From an uncultured archaeon (GTDB lineage Archaea; Asgardarchaeota; Thorarchaeia; Thorarchaeales; Thorarchaeaceae), in NCBI GenBank assembly GCA_964610875.1, contig CAZSWP010000001.1, positions 1 through 64,000 of the forward strand: a DNA stretch of 64,000 nucleotides. Reading direction: 5' to 3'. Below, in pieces: positions 12 to 12,000 of the stretch; position 1 is the first letter of the stretch, and every line of letters starts with the position of its first letter. Both the position numbers and the translations under genes were made by a program. Below the pieces are notes generated by a model, which did no database searches, was not told the DNA's origin, and worked only from the letters and a program-made list of their open reading frames with translations.

Positions 12-362
12 ATGTCCAACTTTGACCAGATCTCTTGTAACTGTTGGCAACCCTTATCAGTGGTTCTCTATTATTTAGACCAAACTTACGGAGGTAAAAT
101 TACATGGCTAAAACTATTCGGTGGGATAGCGTTTGTTCGACGCACATTCTTAGCATTGCCTCCCTCTGCAAAGTTTCTCTACGTTCTACTTAAGAGCACT
201 CGTCGGATGTCCCGGCAAGAGCTGATAAGTAAGACATTTCTTCCTCCTCGAACAGTCAACTATGGACTTAGTCGACTAAAAGACCTTGGTCTAATTGAGG
301 AAGAAGAAAACCGAGAAGACGCGCGCGAGAGGGTATATGTGCTTACAACAGCTCCAATGTGA
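12..362 (+). CDS. small winged-helix (MarR-like) archaeal transcriptional regulator; true start probably downstream of 12
   Basis: LPPSAKFLY...SRQELISKTFLPPRTVNYGLSRLKDLGLIEE..DARERVY matches the small archaeal wHTH family. Confidence 0.7.
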   Translation: MSNFDQISCNCWQPLSVVLYYLDQTYGGKITWLKLFGGIAFVRRTFLALPPSAKFLYVLLKSTRRMSRQELISKTFLPPRTVNYGLSRLKDLGLIEEEENREDARERVYVLTTAPM

Positions 363-525
363 GAGTCGGGCAACAAAGGCTTCGCTGTAGTAAGATATTC
401 TTCATCGAAGCCATCCCTTTTGGCAATCAACAACAAATGACTCACCACTATATAGAACGGTTAGTTCCAAAACAGTCTTAATGTGAGTGAGTTGGAATTC
501 AATGACACTCTTCGAGGCGAGTTGC

Positions 526-1884
526 ATGGACTATTATAATAAGGCTGGTGTAGAACCAATTGGTGATATAACCCGTACGCATTATACAAAAGATATTACT
601 TCCGAGAATGTGGGCAAGAAAGTAGTTCTAATGGGTTGGGTTCACATTCTACGAGATAAGGGGAAAATAAAATTCTTAGTGCTTCGTGATGAACGTGGAA
701 GTACTCAAGTAACAATCCCACAAAAGAAGGTGACAGAAGAAGTCTTTGACTTATCTGGGAACCTAAAACCTGAGATGGCTATATGTGTTGAAGGTGATGT
801 TGTTGCGACAAAGCATCTTGAATCTGGTGCTGAGGTCATACCGACCAAGATTCGAATTCTAAACACTTCGGAGAGACTACCAATAGAGATTGTAGAAGGC
901 AAAGTCTTCATTGATCTGGATACACGACTGACTCATCGGATTCTTGACCTGCGTAAACCTACTGTAAATGCTATTTTCCGGATTCAACACAGTCTTGTCC
1001 GTTTTGCACGAGAGTTCCTAGAGCAGAATGAGTTCGTTGAAATCCACACACCCAAAATTGTTGCAGAAGCAACAGAGGGTGGCGCTAATCTATTTGAAAT
1101 AAAATACTTTGAGAAGAAAGCGTATCTTGCTCAGAGCCCGCAATTCTACAAACAATTGATGCTTTTAGCAGGATTTGGACGAGTCTTTGAGATTGCTCCT
1201 GTCTTTAGAGCTGAAAAGCACAACACTCGACGACATGTAAATGAATACACATCTTTTGACTTTGAGATGGCATGGATAAGTGATGTCGAAGATGTCATGA
1301 AGATGGAAGAGCAGATGCTAGAGTACTCCTTCAGGAAGACAAAGGAACATGCTGCTGCTGAATTGGACTTACTTGAGATTGATTTCAAGATTCCAAAATT
1401 ACCATTCAAGAGGGTCAAATATATAGAAACAATCGAGTTGCTAAATGATGCTGGCAAAGATCTCAGTATTCATGATGATATAGACCCTGAAGGTGAAAAA
1501 CTACTGGGAGAGATATTCCCTGAGAAATATGATACAGACTTGGTATTCATTACTCATTATCCATTGGAACTCAGGCCTGCCTATACAATGCCGAGTCTGA
1601 CAGATGAGGGAATGACAGAGAGTTTCGACCTCACATACAAAGGAATGGAAATAACCACTGGGGGACAAAGAATTCATCTCTGCGACCTTCTGGTTGAGAG
1701 ATTCAAAGCAAAAGGCTTCAATCCAGATGCATTTGGTTTCTATCTTGACCCATTCAAATTTGGTGCACCACCTCATGGAGGCCTAGGTCTGGGTGTTGAA
1801 CGTCTAACAATGCAACTGCTTGGTATTGAAAACATACGGGAAGCCACATTACTTCCAAGGGATAGAGATCGCATTACTCCATAA
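526..1884 (+). CDS. aspS: aspartate--tRNA ligase (archaeal type)
   Basis: OB-fold N-terminus ([11 protein letters not shown]), [10 protein letters not shown], motif 2 FRAE, motif 3 [16 protein letters not shown]-terminal PRD; start moved to ATG 526. Confidence 0.93.
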
Positions 1885-2023: not shown

Positions 2024-2800
2024 ATGTATCACAACGTTGAAACTGAGCTTTATGCTTCCATCGCTACCCTTGACCAATTGAAGAAGCTCTATGATGTTGG
2101 CGCTGTAGATATAGTATCATATCAAAGAGAATCAGAAGCTCTTGTAAGAGAAGTGAATTCAAGAATAGAAGAACTCAGAAGATTGGGCGTTGATGTGGGT
2201 GACTTTCTAAGTTCAGAGAGAGTTCCTGACAACTTCCCTGATGCTGCATCACTCCTCAGGTTTCAAAGCAGACAACAAACCTCCTCTTCAGATGGTATGA
2301 AAATGGACCAATATTATGATAGATTAGGGCTAGCAATTCTTGATGTCGCAACATATAATGCTTCAAAAGGCCTTATGGGCCTCGCCGAACTGATTGTCGA
2401 AGTGGTGAAACGAGTTCCTGAGTTAAAATCCGTGAGCTATAATGATGTAATTGAAGCAGTAAATCGTGTTGCTGAAAATGGTCTTATCCCCGGAATCAAG
2501 ACATTACGCGGTGGAGTAAAAGTTGTAGAACTACGACCTCTTGAATTAAGGCGTGATCAAGCTGATGTTGTAAATCTGGCTGCGACAAAAGGATTTACAT
2601 CAGTTGAAGAAGTCATGGTAGAGTTGAAATGGTCTGAAGAACATGCTCGTCAAGTCTTGGGTAGTCTAGTAGACGCTGGGATGGCAGTTGCAGATATTAG
2701 GTTTAGCACTGGAGGAAGGTATTATTTTCCCGGTCTAAGAGCTAGGGATTCTCGAGCTCGGGGATATACCCAACGGTCAGATGAGCGAATGTCTGCATAG
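2024..2800 (+). CDS. Vps28 N-terminal (ESCRT-I)-like domain fused to EAP30/Vps22-Vps36 (ESCRT-II) winged-helix domains
   Basis: aa1-80 ELYASIATLDQLKKLYDVGAVDIVSYQRESEAL resembles the Vps28 N-terminal hairpin; aa95-240 DQYYDRLGLAIL...GLMGLAEL...PLELRRDQ...KGFTSV...LKWSEEHARQVLGSLVDAGMAVAD...YYFPGL aligns by eye with Snf8/EAP30; ESCRT gene context. Confidence 0.8.
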   Translation: MYHNVETELYASIATLDQLKKLYDVGAVDIVSYQRESEALVREVNSRIEELRRLGVDVGDFLSSERVPDNFPDAASLLRFQSRQQTSSSDGMKMDQYYDRLGLAILDVATYNASKGLMGLAELIVEVVKRVPELKSVSYNDVIEAVNRVAENGLIPGIKTLRGGVKVVELRPLELRRDQADVVNLAATKGFTSVEEVMVELKWSEEHARQVLGSLVDAGMAVADIRFSTGGRYYFPGLRARDSRARGYTQRSDERMSA

Positions 2801-2808
2801 AATCTGAT

Positions 2809-3537
2809 TTAGACAATTATCTTAACAGCAAATTTCTTTTTGTCCACCCATTCAGCTTGTTCTCGTTCTACAAGAACTTTGAGGACTTGTTCAATGTCCT
2901 CTTCTGGCAGACTTGCAAAGCCGATATTTGAGTGCTGTATCACAATTGTCTGGAGATCGAGTCTTAAAGTTCCTGTCTTTATGGACCACTCATAAATTTC
3001 ATCAGCCCAATCTTCTACGGGTTTCCAATAAACTCGAAGCTGGTGTCTTTTCCTATCTTTCCATATTGCAACATCATCATCCACAAGTTTTGAAGCAATT
3101 AATTTGAACGCCTTAGTCTTATTGAGGATATCTTTGAACGGATGTTCCTTTATGAAAACCGTCAGTGAGATGATATGCGCTTTATTTACTTCCGTCCACT
3201 GGAGAAGAAAATCTGCCCATTCTGAAGCCCACATCTCTTTATCTTCATCTCTTGGTGGGATTGAATACATCCATTCCGTTTCTTCAATCGTACCCCATAA
3301 CGGTGAAAGAACATCTTCCACTGCAATTTCTACAGGAGTACTATCCATTTTTTCCGTATCTGTCGTTTCTTCCTGCTCTGTTTCCCTTATCTTCACTTCT
3401 GGAATGTGAGTTTCAACTTCGGGTTCCAGCTCATATTCATCTCCGAGCTCAGGAAGGGTGACCTCTCTCCCCTCTGTCTTTTCTTTTTCAGATGTCTTGG
3501 ACTTCTCTTTTTTTCTGCGTCTTTCCCTGACGCCCAA
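2809..3537 (-). CDS. vps25: ESCRT-II subunit Vps25 homolog with charged N-terminal extension
   Basis: WMYSIPP...WADFLLQW...VYWKPVEDWADEIYEWSIKTG...FASLPEEDIEQVLKVL...AEW follows the Vps25 tandem winged-helix pattern; directly downstream of vps4. Confidence 0.85.
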   Translation of the reverse strand: MGVRERRRKKEKSKTSEKEKTEGREVTLPELGDEYELEPEVETHIPEVKIRETEQEETTDTEKMDSTPVEIAVEDVLSPLWGTIEETEWMYSIPPRDEDKEMWASEWADFLLQWTEVNKAHIISLTVFIKEHPFKDILNKTKAFKLIASKLVDDDVAIWKDRKRHQLRVYWKPVEDWADEIYEWSIKTGTLRLDLQTIVIQHSNIGFASLPEEDIEQVLKVLVEREQAEWVDKKKFAVKIIV

Positions 3538-3540
3538 GTT

Positions 3541-4776
3541 CTAGGAACCCTCCGCCCATTCGATATATTTTCTCAAATCCTCTGGTGAAGTCGCTGGACG
3601 AATATTTTCTATGGCATTAAGAAAGTCGTCACGTGAAACAGGCCGCAAATCAAAAATCTCTGTGTCATCATCCATTCTTCCTGTCCTCTGAAGGTCGCGT
3701 ATTGGTTCCATTGCAGCCTCTCTACAAATCACACTGATATCACGTCCACTATAGCCTTCACTAAGGTCTGCAAGCTCGGCGTAGTCCACATCTGGTGATA
3801 CCTCAATCTCTTCCATATGAATTTCAAAGATTCTCTCTCTTGCTTTCCTATCTGGTAGAGGAACATGAATCCGTTTTTCAAATCGTGATCTAAGAGCAAA
3901 ATCGAGCTCCCAAGGCAGGTTTGTTGCCCCAATGATGGTAATTCTCTCATCACTTCTACTTGCTAGGCCCTGTATCTCGGTGAGTAACTGTGTCTTTAGA
4001 CGTCTCTCTCCCCCAACATCATCTCCTGACCTTGCTACTCCAATAGAATCTAATTCATCAATGAAGATTATTGCAGGCTGATTTCTTCGTGCCATCTCGA
4101 AAAGCTTTCTAACAAGTCTCTCTGATTCTCCAAGCCATTTACTTACTATATTTGCAGCTGACACATTGAAGAAAGTTGCATTGACTTCAGTTGCAACAGC
4201 CTTTCCAATTAGTGTCTTACCACATCCTGCAGGGCCATAGAATAAAATACCTCTCCAAGGTTGTCTTGATTTTCCCTTGAACAATTCAGGATGCTTCATG
4301 GGTGCAAGAATGGCATCATTGATTGCTTGTTTTGCATCTTTCAAGCCTGCGACTTCATCTAATCTTACATCAGGACGTTCTGTAATTATCGTATCAGTAA
4401 TCATCTCTTGAAGACGTTTGGTATCGTCATCATCTTCTGCTTTTGTAGACGGTTCAGCTTCCACTTTATGAGTTTCAGGAGTACTATCCACTTGTGGTAT
4501 AGTTTTGAGCCCATCAACAGGGCCTCTACTCTTTTTCTTTATCCCTGAAAGATATCTGACCCGATCCACGCACTCTTCAGCACGTGCAAGATAGTGTTTC
4601 CTAACAGAAGGTAGGGCACTTGAATTTGACATCTTTATGAGAATCTTACTAGCTTTGAGATAATGTTGGCATGCTTCTTTTTTCATACCTCTCTTATCTA
4701 GCTCTATTGCCCGTTCTAGCAGATTCTTCAGACCTATATCCAATCGGTCACTGCCACTCCCTGTCATTTCACTCAC
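3541..4776 (-). CDS. vps4: Vps4 AAA+ ATPase (MIT + AAA + C-terminal helix)
   Basis: N-terminal MIT-like helices (AIELDKRG..EACQHY), Walker A GPAGCGKT, pore loop SKWLGESE, Walker B IIFIDELD, ATNLPWELD..RSRFEKR, C-terminal helix. Confidence 0.93.
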   Translation of the reverse strand: MSEMTGSGSDRLDIGLKNLLERAIELDKRGMKKEACQHYLKASKILIKMSNSSALPSVRKHYLARAEECVDRVRYLSGIKKKSRGPVDGLKTIPQVDSTPETHKVEAEPSTKAEDDDDTKRLQEMITDTIITERPDVRLDEVAGLKDAKQAINDAILAPMKHPELFKGKSRQPWRGILFYGPAGCGKTLIGKAVATEVNATFFNVSAANIVSKWLGESERLVRKLFEMARRNQPAIIFIDELDSIGVARSGDDVGGERRLKTQLLTEIQGLASRSDERITIIGATNLPWELDFALRSRFEKRIHVPLPDRKARERIFEIHMEEIEVSPDVDYAELADLSEGYSGRDISVICREAAMEPIRDLQRTGRMDDDTEIFDLRPVSRDDFLNAIENIRPATSPEDLRKYIEWAEGS

Positions 4777-4964
4777 TCATTTCTTATGGCTTTACGTTAA
4801 TAACTTAGGTGTTGCCGAGATACGTATATCATATAAACACAAGATAGATGCGCATCTTTCTCTAAGGATAAGTGTTTTTTATTAATTCAATTATTAGCAC
4901 CGAAGTATTAAATGGCAATTCGTGCTTGGACTGGTAGGGAAAAACACTTCCCGTGGTGAGTGAT

Positions 4965-5582
4965 TTGGGAATCTTCAAGAAAGCCTTTTCATGGGGTCGG
5001 AAAAAACCCGACATAAGTGAAGTTACAGGTCAGTTGCGAATAATGTCTAAACAGCTAGAACGACAACGCAACAAACTCGAAAAAGAAGAACGTGACACTA
5101 AAGCGAGAGCTATTCGCGCACGTCAAACCGGAAATCTAGAGGCATACAAAACATATGCTACAGAGATGGTTCGCTTTAGAAGAATGGCATTATCTATCGA
5201 TAGGTCGCGTCTTCAAACACTAAAGATTCTTGCTCACGTCACCCGTGCTCAAACAACTGCACAAGCGTCTCGTGCGATTGAACAAGTTGCATCAATTCTT
5301 GGAATGCTTGGTGATTCCACTGATGCAAGTAAGGTAGTTGCAAATGCAGATGAGATTGCTAGACGTCTTGAAGAATTTGAGATTGAAAGTAGCATAACTG
5401 GAGATGCATTTGATTCAACAATGGATTCACAGGTCACATCAGAGGATGTTGCAAGTGCAATGCGAGAAATTGATCGTGAAGCGGGTTTGGCAGAAGCTGA
5501 AGAAGCCACTACACAACCTGTGAGCAAGGCCGAAGAACTCGAAGAGGCTATTCGCTCTCTCGAAAAAGAACTCGGTGTATAA
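4965..5582 (+). CDS. ESCRT-III (Snf7 family, probably Vps2/24/46 class)
   Basis: N-terminal amphipathic MGIFKKAFSW (TTG start at 4965 after GGTGA), basic helical hairpin, acidic C-terminal half, MIM1-like ELEEAIRSLEKEL; divergent from vps4. Confidence 0.88.
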   Translation: MGIFKKAFSWGRKKPDISEVTGQLRIMSKQLERQRNKLEKEERDTKARAIRARQTGNLEAYKTYATEMVRFRRMALSIDRSRLQTLKILAHVTRAQTTAQASRAIEQVASILGMLGDSTDASKVVANADEIARRLEEFEIESSITGDAFDSTMDSQVTSEDVASAMREIDREAGLAEAEEATTQPVSKAEELEEAIRSLEKELGV

Positions 5583-5583
5583 T

Positions 5584-7146
5584 TTACCATCTATGCCCGC
5601 TAGAATCGCGTTTAGTACTTTCCAGTTGCTTTCTAGCTAGATAGGTGTCACGCATTAAGCCACGATATCTCCTGATGAAATCTTCGGGAACAATTCTTCT
5701 ATTTCTCATCATTTGAATTGTTTCCTCTAATGCTTCCTGCAGCGCTACGAAGTCCTGTCTAAGTTTGTAAGGATCGCTGCTCCCATTGTATGATTGGGTT
5801 GGTGGTCTTTGCCATCTGTCTGAAAGCCTATGTTTAAGTTCGTCCCTAAAACTATCCTCTCTTCGATACATGTCCTCTCTTATGAGACCCCCAACGGGTT
5901 CTCCATAGTATGGAGACCTCTCATCTCGGTATCCTGATTCAGGATGTCTTACACCTATTGGGTTCTTTGAGGAGAGCAATGCATACACAAGACTCTCTAT
6001 TTTTATCCTCACGTCACTGATATTCACATTCTGTTGTTCTATCTTCCTGACACGCTGCATATCGGATTGCACATAGCGGTCGAATTTCTTTGCTATCTCA
6101 AGGTAGTCTGGTAGAACGCGTAATGTCTGTTCACTGCAAGCAATTTTCAAATCTCCTTGTTTGAGATGAATGACCAGCTTCTTTCGTATTCTCCCATCTT
6201 CCTCGAGGGTATTAATATACATAATTGGAAAGTCGAATATGACCTCCATTTTCTTCCTTACAATACCAGTTTCAGCTAGAAATACAATTCTCTTATTTGT
6301 CACATATAATGTGCCTTGAGCTCTATCATGTCTGAGAAAATCACTGCCTGCTACTTTGATATCGGGAAATGCACATACTGGTAATTCACTCACAGATAGC
6401 TCGCACACCTCATAAAAACCAGCAAAGTGTTTCTTATAGTAGTGTAGTCCATCAAGCTGTCGATGCAGCTCTGTTAGTTCCTTGTGGGCATTACTTAATG
6501 AATCCTCTACATTCATACGATACTGTTCACCAATAGAAATGACTCGATTAGTGACACCCTCTATAAATGGGAACTGTGAAGAACTCCAACCTGGATAGTC
6601 CATAAGACCCTTTGTTTCAGCTGCAAACCTTTTCGAAACCAATTCCGCTTGATTCATAATTCTACTTTTGACAGCTTCAATCTCCTTCTGTAATGCTTCT
6701 AGTCTGTCTTCGAGCCACTTGTAATGTAGAAAGTTTGCCATCCTTAGAGATACTAGGAGTCTTTTTGCAGATACGAGTTCGTTATTGAATTCACGAAGCT
6801 TTGTATGACCGTGATGAATGGACATTATCGCCTGTCGAAGATTCTGAGCTAGGCTCCTACGTTTTTCTTCGATGCTAATCACCATCGAGGAACGACATGT
6901 TGGACATACTTCCTCCACTCGCCTGCCATTACCTAAATCCTCAGATTCACATTCAGGACATTGCTCAAATGATTCTCCTGGAGTTTGTACGCCCAGGTTG
7001 TGATGGCACTCATTGCAAACGGTATATTTTGTGGATTGACTTTCCAAACAGTCAGTGCAGAGTACTTCGCCACATTCTTCGCACATATGGGTGGCTTGAT
7101 TTGTCTGACATCTTTGACAACGCTGAATCGAGGAATCTTCTCTCAA
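5584..7146 (-). CDS. multi-zinc-finger + coiled-coil + GRAM/PH-like + steadiness-box (Vps23/Vps37 core) protein, ESCRT-I-like
   Basis: six CxxC pairs at N-terminus; long heptad region; GTLYVTNKRIVF GRAM/PH motif; C-terminal ALEETIQMMRNRRIVPEDFIRRYRGLMRDTY like the TSG101/Vps37 steadiness box; GGAGG 7 nt before TTG 7146. Confidence 0.75.
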   Translation of the reverse strand: MREDSSIQRCQRCQTNQATHMCEECGEVLCTDCLESQSTKYTVCNECHHNLGVQTPGESFEQCPECESEDLGNGRRVEEVCPTCRSSMVISIEEKRRSLAQNLRQAIMSIHHGHTKLREFNNELVSAKRLLVSLRMANFLHYKWLEDRLEALQKEIEAVKSRIMNQAELVSKRFAAETKGLMDYPGWSSSQFPFIEGVTNRVISIGEQYRMNVEDSLSNAHKELTELHRQLDGLHYYKKHFAGFYEVCELSVSELPVCAFPDIKVAGSDFLRHDRAQGTLYVTNKRIVFLAETGIVRKKMEVIFDFPIMYINTLEEDGRIRKKLVIHLKQGDLKIACSEQTLRVLPDYLEIAKKFDRYVQSDMQRVRKIEQQNVNISDVRIKIESLVYALLSSKNPIGVRHPESGYRDERSPYYGEPVGGLIREDMYRREDSFRDELKHRLSDRWQRPPTQSYNGSSDPYKLRQDFVALQEALEETIQMMRNRRIVPEDFIRRYRGLMRDTYLARKQLESTKRDSSGHRW

Positions 7147-7309
7147 CTGAAATGCCTCCAGTTTCATTTTTACTACTATTATTGCTATGAATAACCTGAG
7201 TATCACGTGGGTATTGTTCAGTTTTCAGAACCAGCGGCCGAAATATGCCCATGTCGAACTAATTATATTCAATCTCATTTGCGATTTTTATAATACTCAG
7301 GGGATATCT

Positions 7310-8695
7310 ATGGAAGAACTTGCCCAAGCTGCGATTGAAGCTGCCCTTTCCACTGGAGCTACTTTTGCTGATGTTAGAATTGAGAATAGTACTACTACGA
7401 TAATTGAAATCACAGATGGTGTGACCAAGCGATCACTTGCCTCCAGACTAAAGGGTGCAGGTATTCGTGCGTTTATAGATGGTGCGTGGGCTTTTGCTCA
7501 GACCACCGATTTGACTCCAAAGGGCATGAAAGAAACTGGCCTTTCAGTTGGAAGATTAGCTGTGACTACCAAAGATAAAGTTGCAGAGAAATTCAATATT
7601 GAAGGGACCTCCTATAATGATAGAATTGAGATGAAAACCAAGACACCCTTCGATTCAATTTCTATTGAAGAAAAGATGGAATTCGTGAAGTCAATTGATG
7701 ACCAAGCTCGTTCTTTCGATAAACGTATTGTAAACAGCCGCTCGATTTACGGTGAACTTTGGACTGAATTGTATATTGCAAATTCACTCGGTACATCTGT
7801 GTACATGGAAAACTCATTGCCTAGAATCATCTCTAATCCCACTGCAAAGGAAGGCGCAAATAGACAGCGTGCTTTCAAATCTATTGGTGTAAGAGGTGGT
7901 TTTGAAGAAATGGAAAAAGAAGCCCCTCAAAATGTAGGAGTCACAGCCGCAAAACTGGCAATTGATTTACTAGAAGCAGAGGCTGCAAAAGGTGGCAAAT
8001 TCGACGTTGTGATGGACCCTATCTTAAACGGGGTCATGGTCCACGAAGCATTTGGTCATGCTTGCGAAGCTGATAATTGGCCTGCACATGCAACAGTACT
8101 TGAGGACAAAGTTGGTGAGCAGCTGGGCCCTGAACATCTGAACCTTACGGACGACCCAACACTGGAAGGTGAACGAGGTTCCTTTGAATATGACTGGGAG
8201 GGAACTAAGACCAGAAGAAGAAACTTGGTAAAAGATGGAATTCTTACTGAGCTTCTGCATAGTCTTGAAACCAGTACAAGATTAGAGATGGACCCCAATG
8301 GTGCATCTCGTGCTCAGTCATTCATGTATTCACCTCTACCAAGAATGTCAAACACTTTCATGGAGTCTGGTGATTGGGATGTTGAAGAACTGATTCAGGA
8401 TACAAAAACAGGAGTCCTTCTATGCAGTTTCAATTATGGGTATACGGAACCTAGTAAAGGACAGTTCATGTTTCAGGCAAGTCATGGGTATATAATCGAG
8501 AATGGTGAACTTGGACAGATGGTGAGAGATGTTTCCCTTGCAGGTCAAATTCTTGATGTTCTTATGAAGATCGACGCAATTGGCAATGATTTTGAGATGG
8601 ATGCTGGCACTTGCGGAAAATCCGGTCAGGCAGTACCTGACATGAGTGGAGGACCGCATGCAAGAATAAGAGAGATTCCGGTAGGAGGTATGTGA
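7310..8695 (+). CDS. tldD: TldD-family metalloprotease
   Basis: HEAFGHACEAD zinc motif, PRMSNT, CGKSGQ; start moved to ATG 7310. Confidence 0.92.
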   Translation: MEELAQAAIEAALSTGATFADVRIENSTTTIIEITDGVTKRSLASRLKGAGIRAFIDGAWAFAQTTDLTPKGMKETGLSVGRLAVTTKDKVAEKFNIEGTSYNDRIEMKTKTPFDSISIEEKMEFVKSIDDQARSFDKRIVNSRSIYGELWTELYIANSLGTSVYMENSLPRIISNPTAKEGANRQRAFKSIGVRGGFEEMEKEAPQNVGVTAAKLAIDLLEAEAAKGGKFDVVMDPILNGVMVHEAFGHACEADNWPAHATVLEDKVGEQLGPEHLNLTDDPTLEGERGSFEYDWEGTKTRRRNLVKDGILTELLHSLETSTRLEMDPNGASRAQSFMYSPLPRMSNTFMESGDWDVEELIQDTKTGVLLCSFNYGYTEPSKGQFMFQASHGYIIENGELGQMVRDVSLAGQILDVLMKIDAIGNDFEMDAGTCGKSGQAVPDMSGGPHARIREIPVGGM

Positions 8696-8696
8696 G

Positions 8697-10043
8697 ATGG
8701 AAAACCTGCAATCTGTAGCTGAGATAGCTTTGAAGAAAGCTGAATCATTAGGTGTTTCTCAAGCCGAAATCTATGTGGCGTCATCCCAATCATTCTCAAT
8801 AGAAGTTGAAAATAATGCAATAAAATCCGCATCTGAGAGAAGAGACTCTGGTATTGGGATTCGATCTGTTCTTGGAAAGAAAATCGGATTTGCTTATGTT
8901 ACCAATTTGGAAGATAAGGATGTATTTGAAGCAGTTGAGAAATCCGTTCGGTTAGCTAAGGCTTCTCTTGAAGATCCCGATTTTATCAGTCTTCCAACCT
9001 TTAGTGGGACGTATCCTCGTGTAAAGAATCTCTATCATAAAGAAGTTGCAAATCTTTCAAGTGAGGAGACTGCCGAGCTGATTCTTAGAGCTGTAGATGC
9101 CTCAAGAGTAGCAGCCGAGGGGAAAAAACTAGCGCTAGAAGCATCTATAACTGCAAGCAGTGGTACTCGGTCTATTGTAAATTCCCTCGGGATTTCAAAT
9201 AGCACAGAAAGCACTTCGATCTGGCTCTACTGTGCTCCAACGGTGAAAGACGACAGTGATCAAAATTCAAGTTTCGAATATCAAGTAGGTAGGTCTCTTG
9301 ATGGATTTAATCCTGAGAATGTTGGACAAAGTGCCACCAAGAATGCATTGAGAAATCTTGGGGCAAAAACAATAGATGGTGGAGATTCACCTGTTATTTT
9401 TGCTCCTCTGGCAGTGGGCACATTACTTGGTAATGGACTTGCTGGAGCTGTGAATGCTGAAGAGGTACAGTACGGACGATCCTACATATCAGACGCATTT
9501 GGTTCTGAAATCGCATCTAAAGAGCTGACAGTTACTGATATTGGTCACTTAGACGGTGGTACAGGTTCGCGTGTGTTTGATGCTGAAGGGTACCCTTCTC
9601 AAGAAACGCCTGTCTTAGAAAAGGGGATTCTCCGAAGTCTACTGCATAACTCATATACTGCAAACAAGGATGGTGTCGAGAGCACTGGCAATGCAAGTCG
9701 TCCTTCTTATTCTGGTTTACCCAGTATCTCCACGAGCAATTTCGTGATACAACCGGACAGAGGTACTATTGATGACCTGATATCCGAAATGGGTAAAGGT
9801 GTCTTATGTATCAATACTGGAGATCGACCAAACATGACCACTGGAGATCTAAGCGCAATGGTGATGGAAGGTCACTACGTTGAGGATGGAGAGATTAAGC
9901 ACCCTGTGAAAAGTACACTGATTGGAATTAACATGCGTGATTTACTGAAACGTGTTATCAGGGTTGGTAATGATGTGCGTACTACTCTCTCAGTTGTTAG
10001 TCCGTCACTGATGATTGAATCCGCAAAGATAACCTCCGGGTAA
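8697..10043 (+). CDS. pmbA: PmbA/TldE partner subunit
   Basis: FDAEG, STGNASR, no HExxH, directly after tldD. Confidence 0.9.
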   Translation: MENLQSVAEIALKKAESLGVSQAEIYVASSQSFSIEVENNAIKSASERRDSGIGIRSVLGKKIGFAYVTNLEDKDVFEAVEKSVRLAKASLEDPDFISLPTFSGTYPRVKNLYHKEVANLSSEETAELILRAVDASRVAAEGKKLALEASITASSGTRSIVNSLGISNSTESTSIWLYCAPTVKDDSDQNSSFEYQVGRSLDGFNPENVGQSATKNALRNLGAKTIDGGDSPVIFAPLAVGTLLGNGLAGAVNAEEVQYGRSYISDAFGSEIASKELTVTDIGHLDGGTGSRVFDAEGYPSQETPVLEKGILRSLLHNSYTANKDGVESTGNASRPSYSGLPSISTSNFVIQPDRGTIDDLISEMGKGVLCINTGDRPNMTTGDLSAMVMEGHYVEDGEIKHPVKSTLIGINMRDLLKRVIRVGNDVRTTLSVVSPSLMIESAKITSG

Positions 10044-10068: not shown

Positions 10069-12000
10069 TCACATCCGCTCAACAATGGGGATTCCCAAAA
10101 GATTCAAGCTATTTGCCATAGTGATTTTGAATGCTTCAACAAGAGCAAGTCTTGCCTCGCGTAGTCTTGGCTCTGCTTTTAGAACTGGACAAGCATCATA
10201 GAATTTACTAAATAGAGTGGCCAGATTGAAGGAGTGTGATGTAAGCCTATTAGACTGAAAACTAGTTCCCCAAGTCTGTTTCTTTAACCCTCGCGCAACT
10301 TCAAGTACTTCTTGTGGATATTTGGCAATCGCTTTGAGCAGCTCGAATTCAGCATCATGTATCAATAATTTTAGGTCCGCTTCCATTGACTCCTTATATT
10401 CAGCACGTTCAAGAATCCTTTGTGCCCTTGCATATGAATACTGAAGATATGGTGCAGCATCCCCATTAAAATCAAGTACCTCCTCCCACCGGAATGTAAT
10501 TCTCCTATCAGGAGAAGCATTCAGTAGAAAATATCTGATTGCTCCAGAAGCCACACTCTCAGCAACTTGGTTCTTGAACTCTTCTGTTTCATCAGGATTT
10601 CTCTTAGTAACTTCTTCCTTAGCTAATTCAAAAGCCCTGTCAAGTACCACATCACACGAGTACCCCACCCATGTCCCTTTTCTGCCTGAGAAGCCAACAT
10701 CCTCAAGACCTACGAACTCGTAAGCAATATGATGTGAGTTCTCACTTTGTTTCTGATAACCCAGAAGGTCCAGAATGACATAGATAAGTTTCTGTGGATG
10801 TGCCTGGGGAGCTCCAATAACATTGAAGACGAGGTCAAACTTTCCCATACTATGATTGCTACCATTTATGACAGTTCGCAACACCTCGACTCCATTTGGT
10901 TGCTTTTCAAATACAGTATAGTTGAACGGATCCTTCAGTATTCCAAATTTCCACATCTGCAGTGCGACATCTGCTCCCGTATATGTTCTTGTACTATCCG
11001 ATCGAAATAGTACTTTATTTGGGTCCTTCATATCCTTGAACTCGTCTAATGCATCGAGCTTTGCCACTATACAACCAGCTTTCTCTCCCTCTTCAAGGAG
11101 TACTATATTCTCAGCTTCTAGCATTCTATTCTTTGCTTCTTGAAGGAGTCCGCTATGAGCAATACAACTCTCCCATATTTGATAATCATGATAAATACCA
11201 AGACGATATCCTGTCTGATTCTGTGCTTTTACACATCTTGTGACCATTTTTTCGCTGATTTTGGCTACTTCAGAACTTGGTTCTTCAAGTTGTTTTGCTA
11301 CAGCTCGAATCTTTGCTAGTACATTCTTATCACTCTCGAAGGCTGTTTGGACATCAACATATAATTGTCCAAGATAATGATCGTATTTGGCATCTGTTTC
11401 TTGAGTACCAATTTCTCTTAGCTTCCAAGTCAATTGGGCAATCTGAAGTCCAAGGTCATTTATGTAATCTAATCGGATAACATCAAATCCCACCGCTTCA
11501 AGTAGATTTCCCAGTGTATCCCCAAGAACCGCATTGCGAGTATGTCCTATGTGCCAAGGCTTTGACGGGTTAACCGCAGGCGATTCAATCAAAGCTCGTT
11601 TTCCCTTAAATTCTTCTGACGTACCATAGTCTTGTAGTATTTCTTTGACTGTTGATATAACACGTTGACAATAGAACCCTCTATCAAAAAACAGATTGAT
11701 GTAAGGCCCTTTTGAATCAACACGATTGAGAAGAGGTACACTCTCAATTAGTTTCTCCAAATTCTGAACTATATCGGATGCAATTTGTAGTGGGTTCTGC
11801 TTTCTCTCCTTTGCCAAGTAAAAAGAAACAGTTGTGGCAAGATCACCGAGTTTAGGGTCTGGTGGTTCCTCTACAAGATTTGTCAAGACTTCAGTACTAA
11901 GCCCCGTTGCTTCTGCAATTACATTCGTCGTTTCTCTAATGAATTCGTCCCATGGGTTAGGAAAAGATTTCTTCGATGTCATTGCAGACATGTCCTCCAA
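10069..12000 (-). CDS. argS: arginine--tRNA ligase
   Basis: HIGH motif (NPSKPWHIGHTRN), YINDLGLQ, FSGRKG, PYLQYSYARA, C-terminal ERM. Confidence 0.95.
   Translation of the reverse strand: MEDMSAMTSKKSFPNPWDEFIRETTNVIAEATGLSTEVLTNLVEEPPDPKLGDLATTVSFYLAKERKQNPLQIASDIVQNLEKLIESVPLLNRVDSKGPYINLFFDRGFYCQRVISTVKEILQDYGTSEEFKGKRALIESPAVNPSKPWHIGHTRNAVLGDTLGNLLEAVGFDVIRLDYINDLGLQIAQLTWKLREIGTQETDAKYDHYLGQLYVDVQTAFESDKNVLAKIRAVAKQLEEPSSEVAKISEKMVTRCVKAQNQTGYRLGIYHDYQIWESCIAHSGLLQEAKNRMLEAENIVLLEEGEKAGCIVAKLDALDEFKDMKDPNKVLFRSDSTRTYTGADVALQMWKFGILKDPFNYTVFEKQPNGVEVLRTVINGSNHSMGKFDLVFNVIGAPQAHPQKLIYVILDLLGYQKQSENSHHIAYEFVGLEDVGFSGRKGTWVGYSCDVVLDRAFELAKEEVTKRNPDETEEFKNQVAESVASGAIRYFLLNASPDRRITFRWEEVLDFNGDAAPYLQYSYARAQRILERAEYKESMEADLKLLIHDAEFELLKAIAKYPQEVLEVARGLKKQTWGTSFQSNRLTSHSFNLATLFSKFYDACPVLKAEPRLREARLALVEAFKITMANSLNLLGIPIVERM

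Follow-up and report, generated by a model that had tools for sequence, protein, structure and literature searches.

Closest described systems

The closest described counterpart of the locus analysed here belongs to Thorarchaeota AB_25, whose ESCRT proteins were assayed by Y2H and bear the locus tags ThorAB25_08990 (SB), 09000 (ESCRT3A), 09010 (Vps4), 09020 (Vps25) and 09030 (Vps22); the data of that study hold no Vps28 among these five Thor proteins (Hatano et al., 2022, PMC9192718). The same source describes Thorarchaeota as lacking ubiquitin, proposes for Loki and Thor that their freestanding SB protein "may interact with Vps28", reports a Vps25–ESCRT-IIIB contact in Asgard by Y2H, and gives Thorarchaeota Y2H results that suggest routes to ESCRT-III bypassing Vps25. 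Loki- and Thorarchaeia were found to be without UEV-Vps23 by Lu et al. (10.1101/2023.07.25.550441). Two pertinent architectures, Vps22# (cog.002769) and Znr_CC_PH_SB (cog.011556; also Znr_PH_CC_SB), were defined by Makarova et al. (2024, PMC10936438), who assigned residues 1-70 of a Thor Vps22 (KXH75178.1) to Vps28-N (HHpred 99%), considered Znr_PH_CC_SB a likely membrane-associated ESCRT-I component, and noted a Thor protein with BAR and Vps28-C-like parts (KXH73277.1).

The ubiquitin-ESCRT systems of Odinarchaeota and Heimdallarchaeota resemble ours in Vps22, Vps25, two ESCRT-III subunits and Vps4, but own ubiquitin, UEV-Vps23 and a full-length Vps28, none of which we detected here. The Odin Vps23:Vps28 complex is 2:1 (Hatano et al., 2022; see also Lu et al. 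for these systems), and the Heimdall UEV-Vps23-Vps28 protein is another fusion of adjacent ESCRT genes. Likeness to the eukaryotic ESCRT-I headpiece (2F6M; 6VME) lies in the Vps28-N fold and the Vps23-type hairpin, and likeness to eukaryotic ESCRT-II (2ZME, 1U5T) in the tandem winged helices of SNF8-like and Vps25 proteins and in a PH/GLUE-like domain within the system. In contrast to the eukaryotic complexes, however, UEV, Vps37, Vps28-C and Vps36 went undetected, the PH domain belongs to the SB protein, and Vps28-N and Vps22 form one chain.

The locus is a published Thorarchaeia ESCRT cluster

Within the window (the whole 64,000-nucleotide stretch of DNA that was analysed), ORF calling and Pfam recovered the five ORFs at 2024-7146 that had been described from the sequence (Table 1), and the domains originally called in them were borne out by Pfam, Asgard HMMs and fold comparison. 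Because their strands are mixed (+,-,-,+,-), the five ORFs make up a cluster and not one operon. Their order (SB, ESCRT-IIIA, Vps4, Vps25, Vps22) is that of the Thorarchaeia cluster in Hatano et al. (2022), where the AB_25 data show the same five genes under consecutive locus tags and with N-terminal sequences that can be recognised as the same; homologues also bear Thorarchaeota names. The five genes are the standard, previously published Thorarchaeia ESCRT cluster. With the locus in Hatano et al. (2022) and both domain architectures in Makarova et al. (2024), the idea that the architecture might be new is unsupported, and the locus adds little as a discovery.

Table 1. Genes and protein regions of the cluster (window coordinates).
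Feature	Position	Strand	Description
Vps28-N/Vps22 fusion gene	2024-2800	+	258 aa; orthologue of ThorAB25_09030; 'Vps22#' type of Makarova et al. (2024)
Vps28 N-terminal domain (residues 1-82)	2024..2269	+	steadiness-box hairpin and short extra helices
Vps22/SNF8 tandem winged helices (residues 91-240)	2294..2743	+	EAP30 match, SNF8 match, fold
Vps25	2809-3537	-	242 aa
Vps4	3541-4776	-	411 aa
ESCRT-IIIA	4953-5582	+	209 aa
Znr_CC_PH_SB protein	5584-7146	-	520 aa; cog.011556; orthologue of ThorAB25_08990 'SB'
Putative zinc-binding region (residues 10-84)	6895..7119	-	12 Cys, six pairs, about three predicted Zn sites; weak B-box match (E 0.004)
Three long helices, 'coiled coil' (residues 92-240)	6427..6873	-	structure model
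PH/GRAM/GLUE-like fold (residues 243-359)	6070..6420	-	fold comparison
Candidate Vps23-type steadiness-box hairpin (residues 459-515)	5602..5772	-	C-terminal, after disordered linker

The central genes are conventional. Vps25, the only one found in the genome, matches the Pfam ESCRT-II/Vps25 family (E 1.6e-12) and Odinarchaeota Vps25 7pb9 (E 3.5e-35) and is extended at its N-terminus by about 80 aa of charged, low-complexity sequence. Vps4 has AAA and Vps4_C domains by Pfam, with a weaker N-terminal MIT match that lies below its cut-off. The ESCRT-III protein (Pfam Snf7, E 2.9e-7) is A-type, CHMP1/Vps2-like, and the orthologous position in the Hatano et al. data is labelled ESCRT3A. The B-type subunit is encoded on contig C5 of the same genome (C5:30029-30712), and genes elsewhere, away from the locus, specify another Vps22-like protein and additional SB-like proteins. 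The cluster is therefore not self-contained, and calling it a minimal five-gene module was too strong.

An apparently derived Vps28-N/Vps22 fusion

Residues 4-86 of the fusion match an HMM built from 30 Asgard Vps28 proteins (E 2e-16), and a search of the rest of the genome with the same HMM gave no match below E 0.76. In the structure model, residues 1-82 share the fold of a chain of the human ESCRT-I headpiece (6vme_U: Z 11.7, rmsd 2.0, 80 aligned); yeast Vps23-C:Vps28-N likewise has a matching chain (2f6m_D: Z 10.0, rmsd 1.9, 78 aligned). Pfam alone detects neither Vps28-N nor SB, for which Asgard-specific HMMs and fold comparison were required, and sequence matches to the PDB are weak (Vps28 E 0.18, Vps23 E 0.56). 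The Vps22 part matches human SNF8 (E 3e-20) and, in fold, 2zme_A (Z 13.7); the Pfam EAP30 match (E 1.6e-14) covers model positions 64-218 only, and the protein lacks the helices with which Vps22 normally begins. [quoted passage not shown] Both features of Vps22# are present, an N-terminal Vps28-N/SB domain and a C-terminal SNF8-like tandem winged helix; the Hatano et al. data name the AB_25 orthologue plain 'Vps22'.

The full-length fusion occurs in 25 of 26 genomes of the same family and in the sole other genome of the order, and among the matches listed none from outside the order covers it entirely. Makarova et al. (2024) describe the same two architectures, the Vps28-N assignment, the ESCRT-I role and the membrane role of the PH domain, but state an SB fusion for Asgard Vps22 generally, whereas we found the Vps28-N/Vps22 fusion only in Thorarchaeia. 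Elsewhere in Asgard, vps22 is a separate gene downstream of vps28 and on the same strand at 28 of 30 vps28 loci; at 30 non-Thor vps28 loci an HMM of the Thor N-domain matched the Vps28 ORF, with no match to any Vps22 ORF, and four non-Thor Vps22 proteins match EAP30 from model position 2-5 onward. This separate, adjacent arrangement suggests that the fusion probably arose by deletion, ancestral neighbours vps28 and vps22 having been joined in frame with the loss of Vps28-C and of the Vps22 N-terminal helices. The fusion looks like a derived feature of Thorarchaeia, and its coincidence with the loss of ubiquitin, UEV-Vps23 and Vps28-C argues for secondary simplification as opposed to a pre-ubiquitin ancestral state.

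Ubiquitin, UEV and separate Vps28 are undetected

The absence of ubiquitin, E2 and UEV, at first noted for the window, extends to the 95%-complete genome, where Pfam cut-offs and Asgard-specific HMMs revealed none of these and no separate Vps28, and ubiquitin, UEV and separate Vps28 were also absent from 27 further Thorarchaeia genomes; a canonical UEV-Vps23 or full-length Vps28 elsewhere in the genome, which would have told against the original prediction, was thus not detected. Ubiquitin was found in 0 of 28 Thorarchaeia genomes versus 107 of 123 other Asgard genomes. Because the Pfam UEV model is insensitive (0/25 and 0/19 in two ubiquitin-bearing families), the absence of UEV rests also on the Asgard HMMs and on Lu et al. 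A RING search was silent in the genome and in controls alike, and is therefore uninformative.

Several weak candidates were discarded. A ubiquitin-HMM match (C16:34545-34757, E 0.015) has neither a Pfam match nor a C-terminal Gly-Gly. Five weak PF03997 matches in relatives, to frames of 414-522 aa, might have been hidden full-length Vps28 proteins, yet none scored with the Asgard Vps28 HMM; the remaining such matches in the family proved to be the fusion or a frame broken by a stop. The best genome match of a Vps28-C HMM (C30:9103-9624) reached E 0.46, a search that a very diverged Vps28-C might escape, and with this HMM we identified no counterpart of KXH73277.1.

The Znr_CC_PH_SB protein is inherited

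We placed the start of the Znr_CC_PH_SB protein at the ATG at 7146, which matches the start of full-length homologues. Its 12 conserved cysteines, in six pairs, correspond to the three zinc ribbons of cog.011556 as predicted sites, and the coiled-coil region and PH domain of that family are present. In a fold search over the three long helices and the PH region, residues 243-359 resemble MTMR2 (Z 12.7, rmsd 2.7, 107 aligned) as well as EAP45-GLUE (Z 10.6, rmsd 3.5, 97 aligned). Reading the three long helices as a BAR or DH domain was rejected: DH-PH matches deviate by rmsd 6-27 A over that part, and the helices are accordingly left without a domain assignment. The C-terminal hairpin is a steadiness box with moderate confidence, the assignment being weaker than the others (hhalign to Asgard Vps23 SB, E 8.6e-5, probability 60%; Pfam Vps23_core, only E 0.35), and Pfam places no UEV domain in the protein. 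Of 123 other Asgard genomes, 72 have matches to it, and many of these 72 carry ubiquitin, which indicates that this protein was retained and not, as first proposed, newly rewired. Its Zn/PH end may recognise cargo or membrane, as the original prediction had it.

Modelled pairing of the SB and Vps28-N hairpins

That the SB protein would pair with the Vps28-N half of the fusion was part of the original prediction, and at the level of a model it finds support. A complex of SB (452-520) with Vps28-N (1-88), predicted in one job at 1:1 stoichiometry, scored 0.81 versus 0.01 for the best control. Of 80 solved complexes 58 attain that mark, as do 2 of 110 mismatched pairs; the runs share at least 97% of contacts, and partner pLDDT is at least 84. 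Because similar complexes have been solved (2F6M, 6VME), this pass may reflect model memory, and close cousins also pass. Conservation is higher at the interface than in the remainder of each domain (0.83 vs 0.60 and 0.77 vs 0.56; p about 0.001 for both), a difference that may partly mirror helix cores. In 24 of 26 relatives the two genes share a contig and lie no more than about 7 kb apart. The model and the conservation support a headpiece like that of ESCRT-I, in which the Zn/PH protein would pack its SB hairpin on that of Vps28-N.

Other SB-like hairpin proteins of the genome could also be partners of Vps28-N, and the hairpin might be a common dock for interchangeable SB adaptors, each with a different input, which we consider rather unlikely. 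Candidates besides the Zn/PH/SB protein are a GIFT/GATase-like protein with coiled-coil and SB-like regions (C37:10971-12164), for which the literature searched gave no description, and a small CdvA-like hairpin protein (C14:9770-10306); a further hairpin to consider lies at C5:13321-13980. An Asgard UEV-Vps23 HMM aligns by its stalk and SB to the C37 protein (E 7.7e-5; hhalign E 1.8e-4), which has an IFT52_GIFT domain in the position of UEV; all 41 of the order's 41 genomes examined contain this protein, its gene often 11-16 kb from the fusion gene, and Makarova et al. (2024) allow that multidomain SB proteins might bind ESCRT-I SB motifs. However, what it matches in coiled coil and hairpin is of a generic, SHOCT/GvpG-like kind, its hairpin is without the aromatic and basic pattern common to the Zn/PH SB and Vps23 and fails to align to the former (E 0.35), and the conserved distance may be family-wide synteny; in this genome, contig C37 and the start of C1 share no exact overlap that would link the gene to the locus. 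A fuller version, in which Thorarchaeia lost ubiquitin and UEV-Vps23, hard-wired ESCRT-I/II by the vps28–vps22 deletion-fusion, and use Vps28-N as a plug-in site for SB adaptors including this Vps23-like protein, seems to us unlikely; if true, it would provide a natural ESCRT-I/II system that works without ubiquitin, has new input domains and could be reconstituted.

It is more doubtful still that the Vps28-N hairpin is a self-association element replacing the Vps22 N-terminal helices, with the Zn/PH/SB gene acting separately. Thor Vps22 does self-interact in Y2H (Hatano et al., 2022) without the N-terminal region, one cross-linked dimer surface of Heimdall Vps22, and in the genome from the other family of the order the fusion and Zn/PH/SB genes are unlinked; but the second Heimdall dimer surface (residues 160-167) lies further along, probably inside the retained winged helices, and the complex model and conservation favour a heterologous SB/Vps28-N interface. 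Finally, it is very improbable that SAMP/Urm1-type modifiers replace ubiquitin and are read by the zinc ribbons or the PH/GLUE-like domain: the genome encodes at least three ThiS/Urm1/SAMP-like Gly-Gly proteins above the ThiS cut-off and two ThiF/E1-like enzymes, and EAP45-GLUE, which the PH domain resembles, is a fold solved in complex with ubiquitin, but ThiS/ThiF are common sulfur-carrier genes (ThiF exceeds its cut-off in 11 of 14 control genomes), none lies at the ESCRT locus, and GLUE is not the top fold match.

A proposed pathway and its meaning

Taken as a whole, the locus is probably best explained as the standard Thorarchaeia ESCRT cluster with a covalent ESCRT-I/II fusion, a modelled SB/Vps28-N headpiece and a pathway drawn from known families. 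The PH domain would target the Zn/PH/SB protein to the membrane, where its SB hairpin and the Vps28-N hairpin may form the ESCRT-I-like headpiece; the joining of vps28 to vps22 would make the link from ESCRT-I to ESCRT-II covalent; the Vps22 winged helices would bind Vps25, which would recruit the off-locus ESCRT-IIIB and, through it, the ESCRT-IIIA of the locus; and Vps4 would remodel the ESCRT-III polymer, leading to membrane budding or sealing. The trigger would be something other than ubiquitin.

Our survey refines the literature in that the fusion appears as a lineage-specific simplification in Thorarchaeia. The cluster also has some value as a test system: a eukaryote-like ESCRT-I/II/III/Vps4 set without detectable ubiquitin lets one ask what recruits early ESCRTs when there is no such tag.

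The locus and its domain content

Five intact ORFs lie within 2024-7146 of the window, on strands +,-,-,+,- (Table), in a genome of 3.75 Mb (95% completeness, 5.8% contamination). The genes and the domains claimed for them in the original prediction are real and were correctly read, as judged by Pfam, an Asgard Vps28 HMM, fold superposition and hhalign. Gene 1 is a Vps28-N/Vps22 fusion, whose predicted structure comprises a helical N-terminal domain (residues 2-86), which a low-confidence linker joins to two winged helices. Its C-terminal part matches human SNF8 in sequence (E 3e-20) and, as a predicted model, in structure (Z 13.7, rmsd 3.9, 151 aligned), and residues 1-82 of the model superpose on the human ESCRT-I headpiece (6VME chain U: Z 11.7, rmsd 2.0) and the yeast Vps23-C:Vps28-N complex (2F6M chain D: Z 10.0, rmsd 1.9). 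The expected profile match to Vps28-N was present: an HMM built from 30 full-length Asgard Vps28 proteins matched gene 1 at residues 4-86 (E 2e-16), with no other match below E 0.76 among 21,189 ORFs of this genome.

Gene 5 gave only weak Pfam matches (B-box, PH, Vps36). Its terminal hairpin matched Asgard Vps23 steadiness boxes (SB) moderately (hhalign E 8.6e-5, probability 60%), making the putative steadiness box the weakest domain call at the locus, but one that is in line with the literature.

Table. Coordinates of the ESCRT cluster, its flanks and related genes (C, contigs of the source genome G000; L, extracted DNA pieces; G044 and G053, other Asgard genomes)
Feature	Location	Strand	Details
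MarR-type HTH gene	window 12-362		
Aspartyl-tRNA synthetase	window 487-1884	+	by inspection
Gene 1, Vps28-N/Vps22	window 2024-2800	+	258 aa; Pfam EAP30 at residues 52-224, model 64-218 only
Gene 1/gene 2 junction	window 2797-2812		convergent, gap 8 bp
Gene 2, Vps25	window 2809-3537	-	242 aa; Pfam Vps25
Gene 3/gene 2 spacing	window 3535-3544		3 bp
Gene 3, Vps4	window 3541-4776	-	411 aa; Pfam MIT/AAA/Vps4_C
Gene 4, ESCRT-IIIA	window 4953-5582	+	209 aa; Pfam Snf7
Gene 4/gene 5 junction	window 5579-5587		convergent, gap 1 bp
Gene 5, Zn/PH/SB protein	window 5584-7146	-	520 aa
12 conserved cysteines	gene 5 residues 10-84		
Three long helices	gene 5 residues 92-240		
PH fold	gene 5 residues 243-359		MTMR2 Z 12.7, EAP45-GLUE Z 10.6
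Disordered linker	gene 5, PH fold to terminal hairpin		
Terminal hairpin	gene 5 residues 459-515		
TldD/PmbA pair	window 7187-10043	+	by inspection
Arginyl-tRNA synthetase	window 10069-12000	-	by inspection
ESCRT-IIIB	C5:30029-30712 (L048:3029-3712)	-	stand-alone, flanked by housekeeping genes
Vps22-like protein	C14:12842-15166 (L047:4843-7167)	+	774 aa
Neighboring trio	C14:9770-12374 (L047:1771-4375)	-	368, 286 and 178 aa
GIFT/SB-like protein	C37:10971-12164 (L129:4972-6165)	+	397 aa
Helical protein	C5:13321-13980 (L130:4322-4981)	+	219 aa; two SB/SHOCT/GvpG-like hairpins; Asgard Vps23-SB HMM E 1.1e-5
Na+/H+ antiporter-like membrane protein	C6:32637-34298	-	two C-terminal SB/SHOCT-like hairpins, by inspection
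~605-aa frame	G044 C95:9037-10836; G053 C138:83409-85205		

Distribution and origin of the fusion

Most of the named homologues found for genes 1 and 5 belong to Candidatus Thorarchaeota (~58-76% and ~47-59% identity, respectively, among the matches listed). The full-length fusion occurs in 25 of 26 genomes of the same family, as well as in the order's one remaining genome, and none of the listed matches from outside the order covers both domains. At 30 vps28 loci of other Asgard archaea, an HMM of the Thorarchaeales N-domain matched the Vps28 ORF in every case and the Vps22 ORF in none; vps22 lies downstream on the same strand at 28 of these, the other two ending early downstream, and Vps22 from four of the 30 matches EAP30 from model position 2-5. 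The simplest reading, a tree-free inference, is that a deletion spanning the neighboring genes vps28 and vps22 joined them in frame, which would have removed Vps28-C and the N-terminal helices of Vps22. Because gene 5 has matches, some partial or weak, in every one of the order's 27 other genomes and in 72/123 other Asgard genomes, it is older than the fusion; the two genes share a contig, at most ~7 kb apart, in 24/26 relatives. In another Asgard family, a ~605-aa frame, possibly cog.002441 of Makarova et al., apparently matches gene 5 over its Zn/helical part and, in addition, the winged helices of Vps22.

Predicted pairing of the steadiness box with Vps28-N

The proposed interface was found in a model: complex prediction for SB (452-520) with Vps28-N (1-88) scored 0.81, against 0.01 for the best control, a mark reached by 58/80 solved complexes and 2/110 mismatched pairs (rates that are approximate for the alignments used here). 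At least 97% of contacts were common to runs, with partner pLDDT of at least 84; predicted contacts center on F490/I491/Y494/R495/M498/R499/Y502 of gene 5 and T7/Y10/A11/A14/T15/Q18/L19 of gene 1, and interface positions are better conserved than the remainder of each domain. Since similar complexes have already been solved, the model shows likeness to the textbook headpiece, not binding by this copy.

ESCRT components beyond the locus

The five-gene locus does not stand alone. The ESCRT-III that it encodes is CHMP1-like (type A), and a second ESCRT-III encoded elsewhere most resembles Heimdall ESCRT-IIIB (E 2e-11). In one Heimdallarchaeota system, type B acts first and then recruits type A (PMC11804906), and Vps25 pairs with ESCRT-IIIB in Y2H (PMC9192718). 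The analysis shows the domain content, the lineage restriction and, within the sensitivity of the searches, the absences. The SB hairpin of gene 5 is modelled to pair with Vps28-N of the fusion, and family knowledge suggests that the PH domain would target the membrane, after which Vps22, Vps25, ESCRT-IIIB, ESCRT-IIIA and Vps4 would act in that order.

Alternatively, Vps28-N could be a dock for multiple adaptors. The 397-aa protein, with an IFT52_GIFT/GATase-like domain, low-complexity linker, coiled coil and SB-like hairpin, is a candidate UEV-less Vps23-like adaptor: it matches Asgard UEV-Vps23 over stalk and SB (E 7.7e-5) and is present in 41/41 genomes of the order, often 11-16 kb from the fusion gene.

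The 774-aa protein carries tandem Vps22-like winged helices at its C-terminal end, along with a coiled coil and a carboxypeptidase-regulatory-like (Ig-type) domain, and most same-family genomes have similar frames of 780-860 aa. Nearby lie a winged-helix protein (368 aa), a fusion of longin with an Arf/Rab-like small GTPase (286 aa) and a coiled-coil protein with a CdvA-like hairpin (178 aa; E 5e-4), possibly forming with it a second trafficking-related locus.

Absence of ubiquitin

The lack of ubiquitin, E2 and UEV noted for the window extended to the 95%-complete genome, where profile searches for Vps28, UEV, ubiquitin and E2 returned none over cut-off. HMMs built from Asgard sequences for ubiquitin, UEV and Vps28-C likewise gave no convincing match. 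In a phylum-wide sample, ubiquitin was detected in 0/28 genomes of the order versus 107/123 others, UEV (with an insensitive model) in 0/28 versus 46/123, and Vps28 in 102/123 others; in the order, all Vps28 matches were weak, and several were to the fusion itself. The genome also encodes ThiS/Urm1/SAMP-like proteins and ThiF enzymes, so "ubiquitin-free" is no proof of "tag-free"; as an unlikely alternative, a SAMP/Urm1 tag could operate in the system. Four small ThiS/Urm1/SAMP-like proteins (L143-L146) end in Gly-Gly, three of them over the ThiS cut-off.

Stoichiometry and relation to published work

The suggested minimal three-polypeptide supercomplex would mean three kinds of chain: because Odin Vps23:Vps28 is a 2:1 complex and the Vps22 of Thor interacts with itself in Y2H (both Hatano et al., 2022, PMC9192718), an assembly of SB protein, Vps28-N-Vps22 and Vps25 would probably contain more copies. 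The role of Vps28-N could instead be self-association.

The architecture, whose earlier description the original prediction could not confirm, had already been published. Hatano et al. (2022, PMC9192718) worked with ThorAB25_08990 (SB), 09000 (ESCRT3A), 09010 (Vps4), 09020 (Vps25) and 09030 (Vps22), counterparts of genes 5, 4, 3, 2 and 1, report Thorarchaeota without ubiquitin and propose that SB and Vps28 interact in Loki and Thor. Architectures that match genes 1 and 5 appear in Makarova et al. (2024, PMC10936438): a Vps22 that carries a fused SB, with a 99% HHpred match of a Thor sequence to Vps28-N, and Znr_PH_CC_SB, regarded as a probable part of ESCRT-I whose PH domain associates with the membrane. 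Lu et al. (10.1101/2023.07.25.550441) report no UEV-Vps23 in Thorarchaeia. The locus is real, correctly read and already known. Added here are the restriction of the fusion to Thorarchaeia and the way it probably arose, an interface model that passed, and candidates encoded off the locus.
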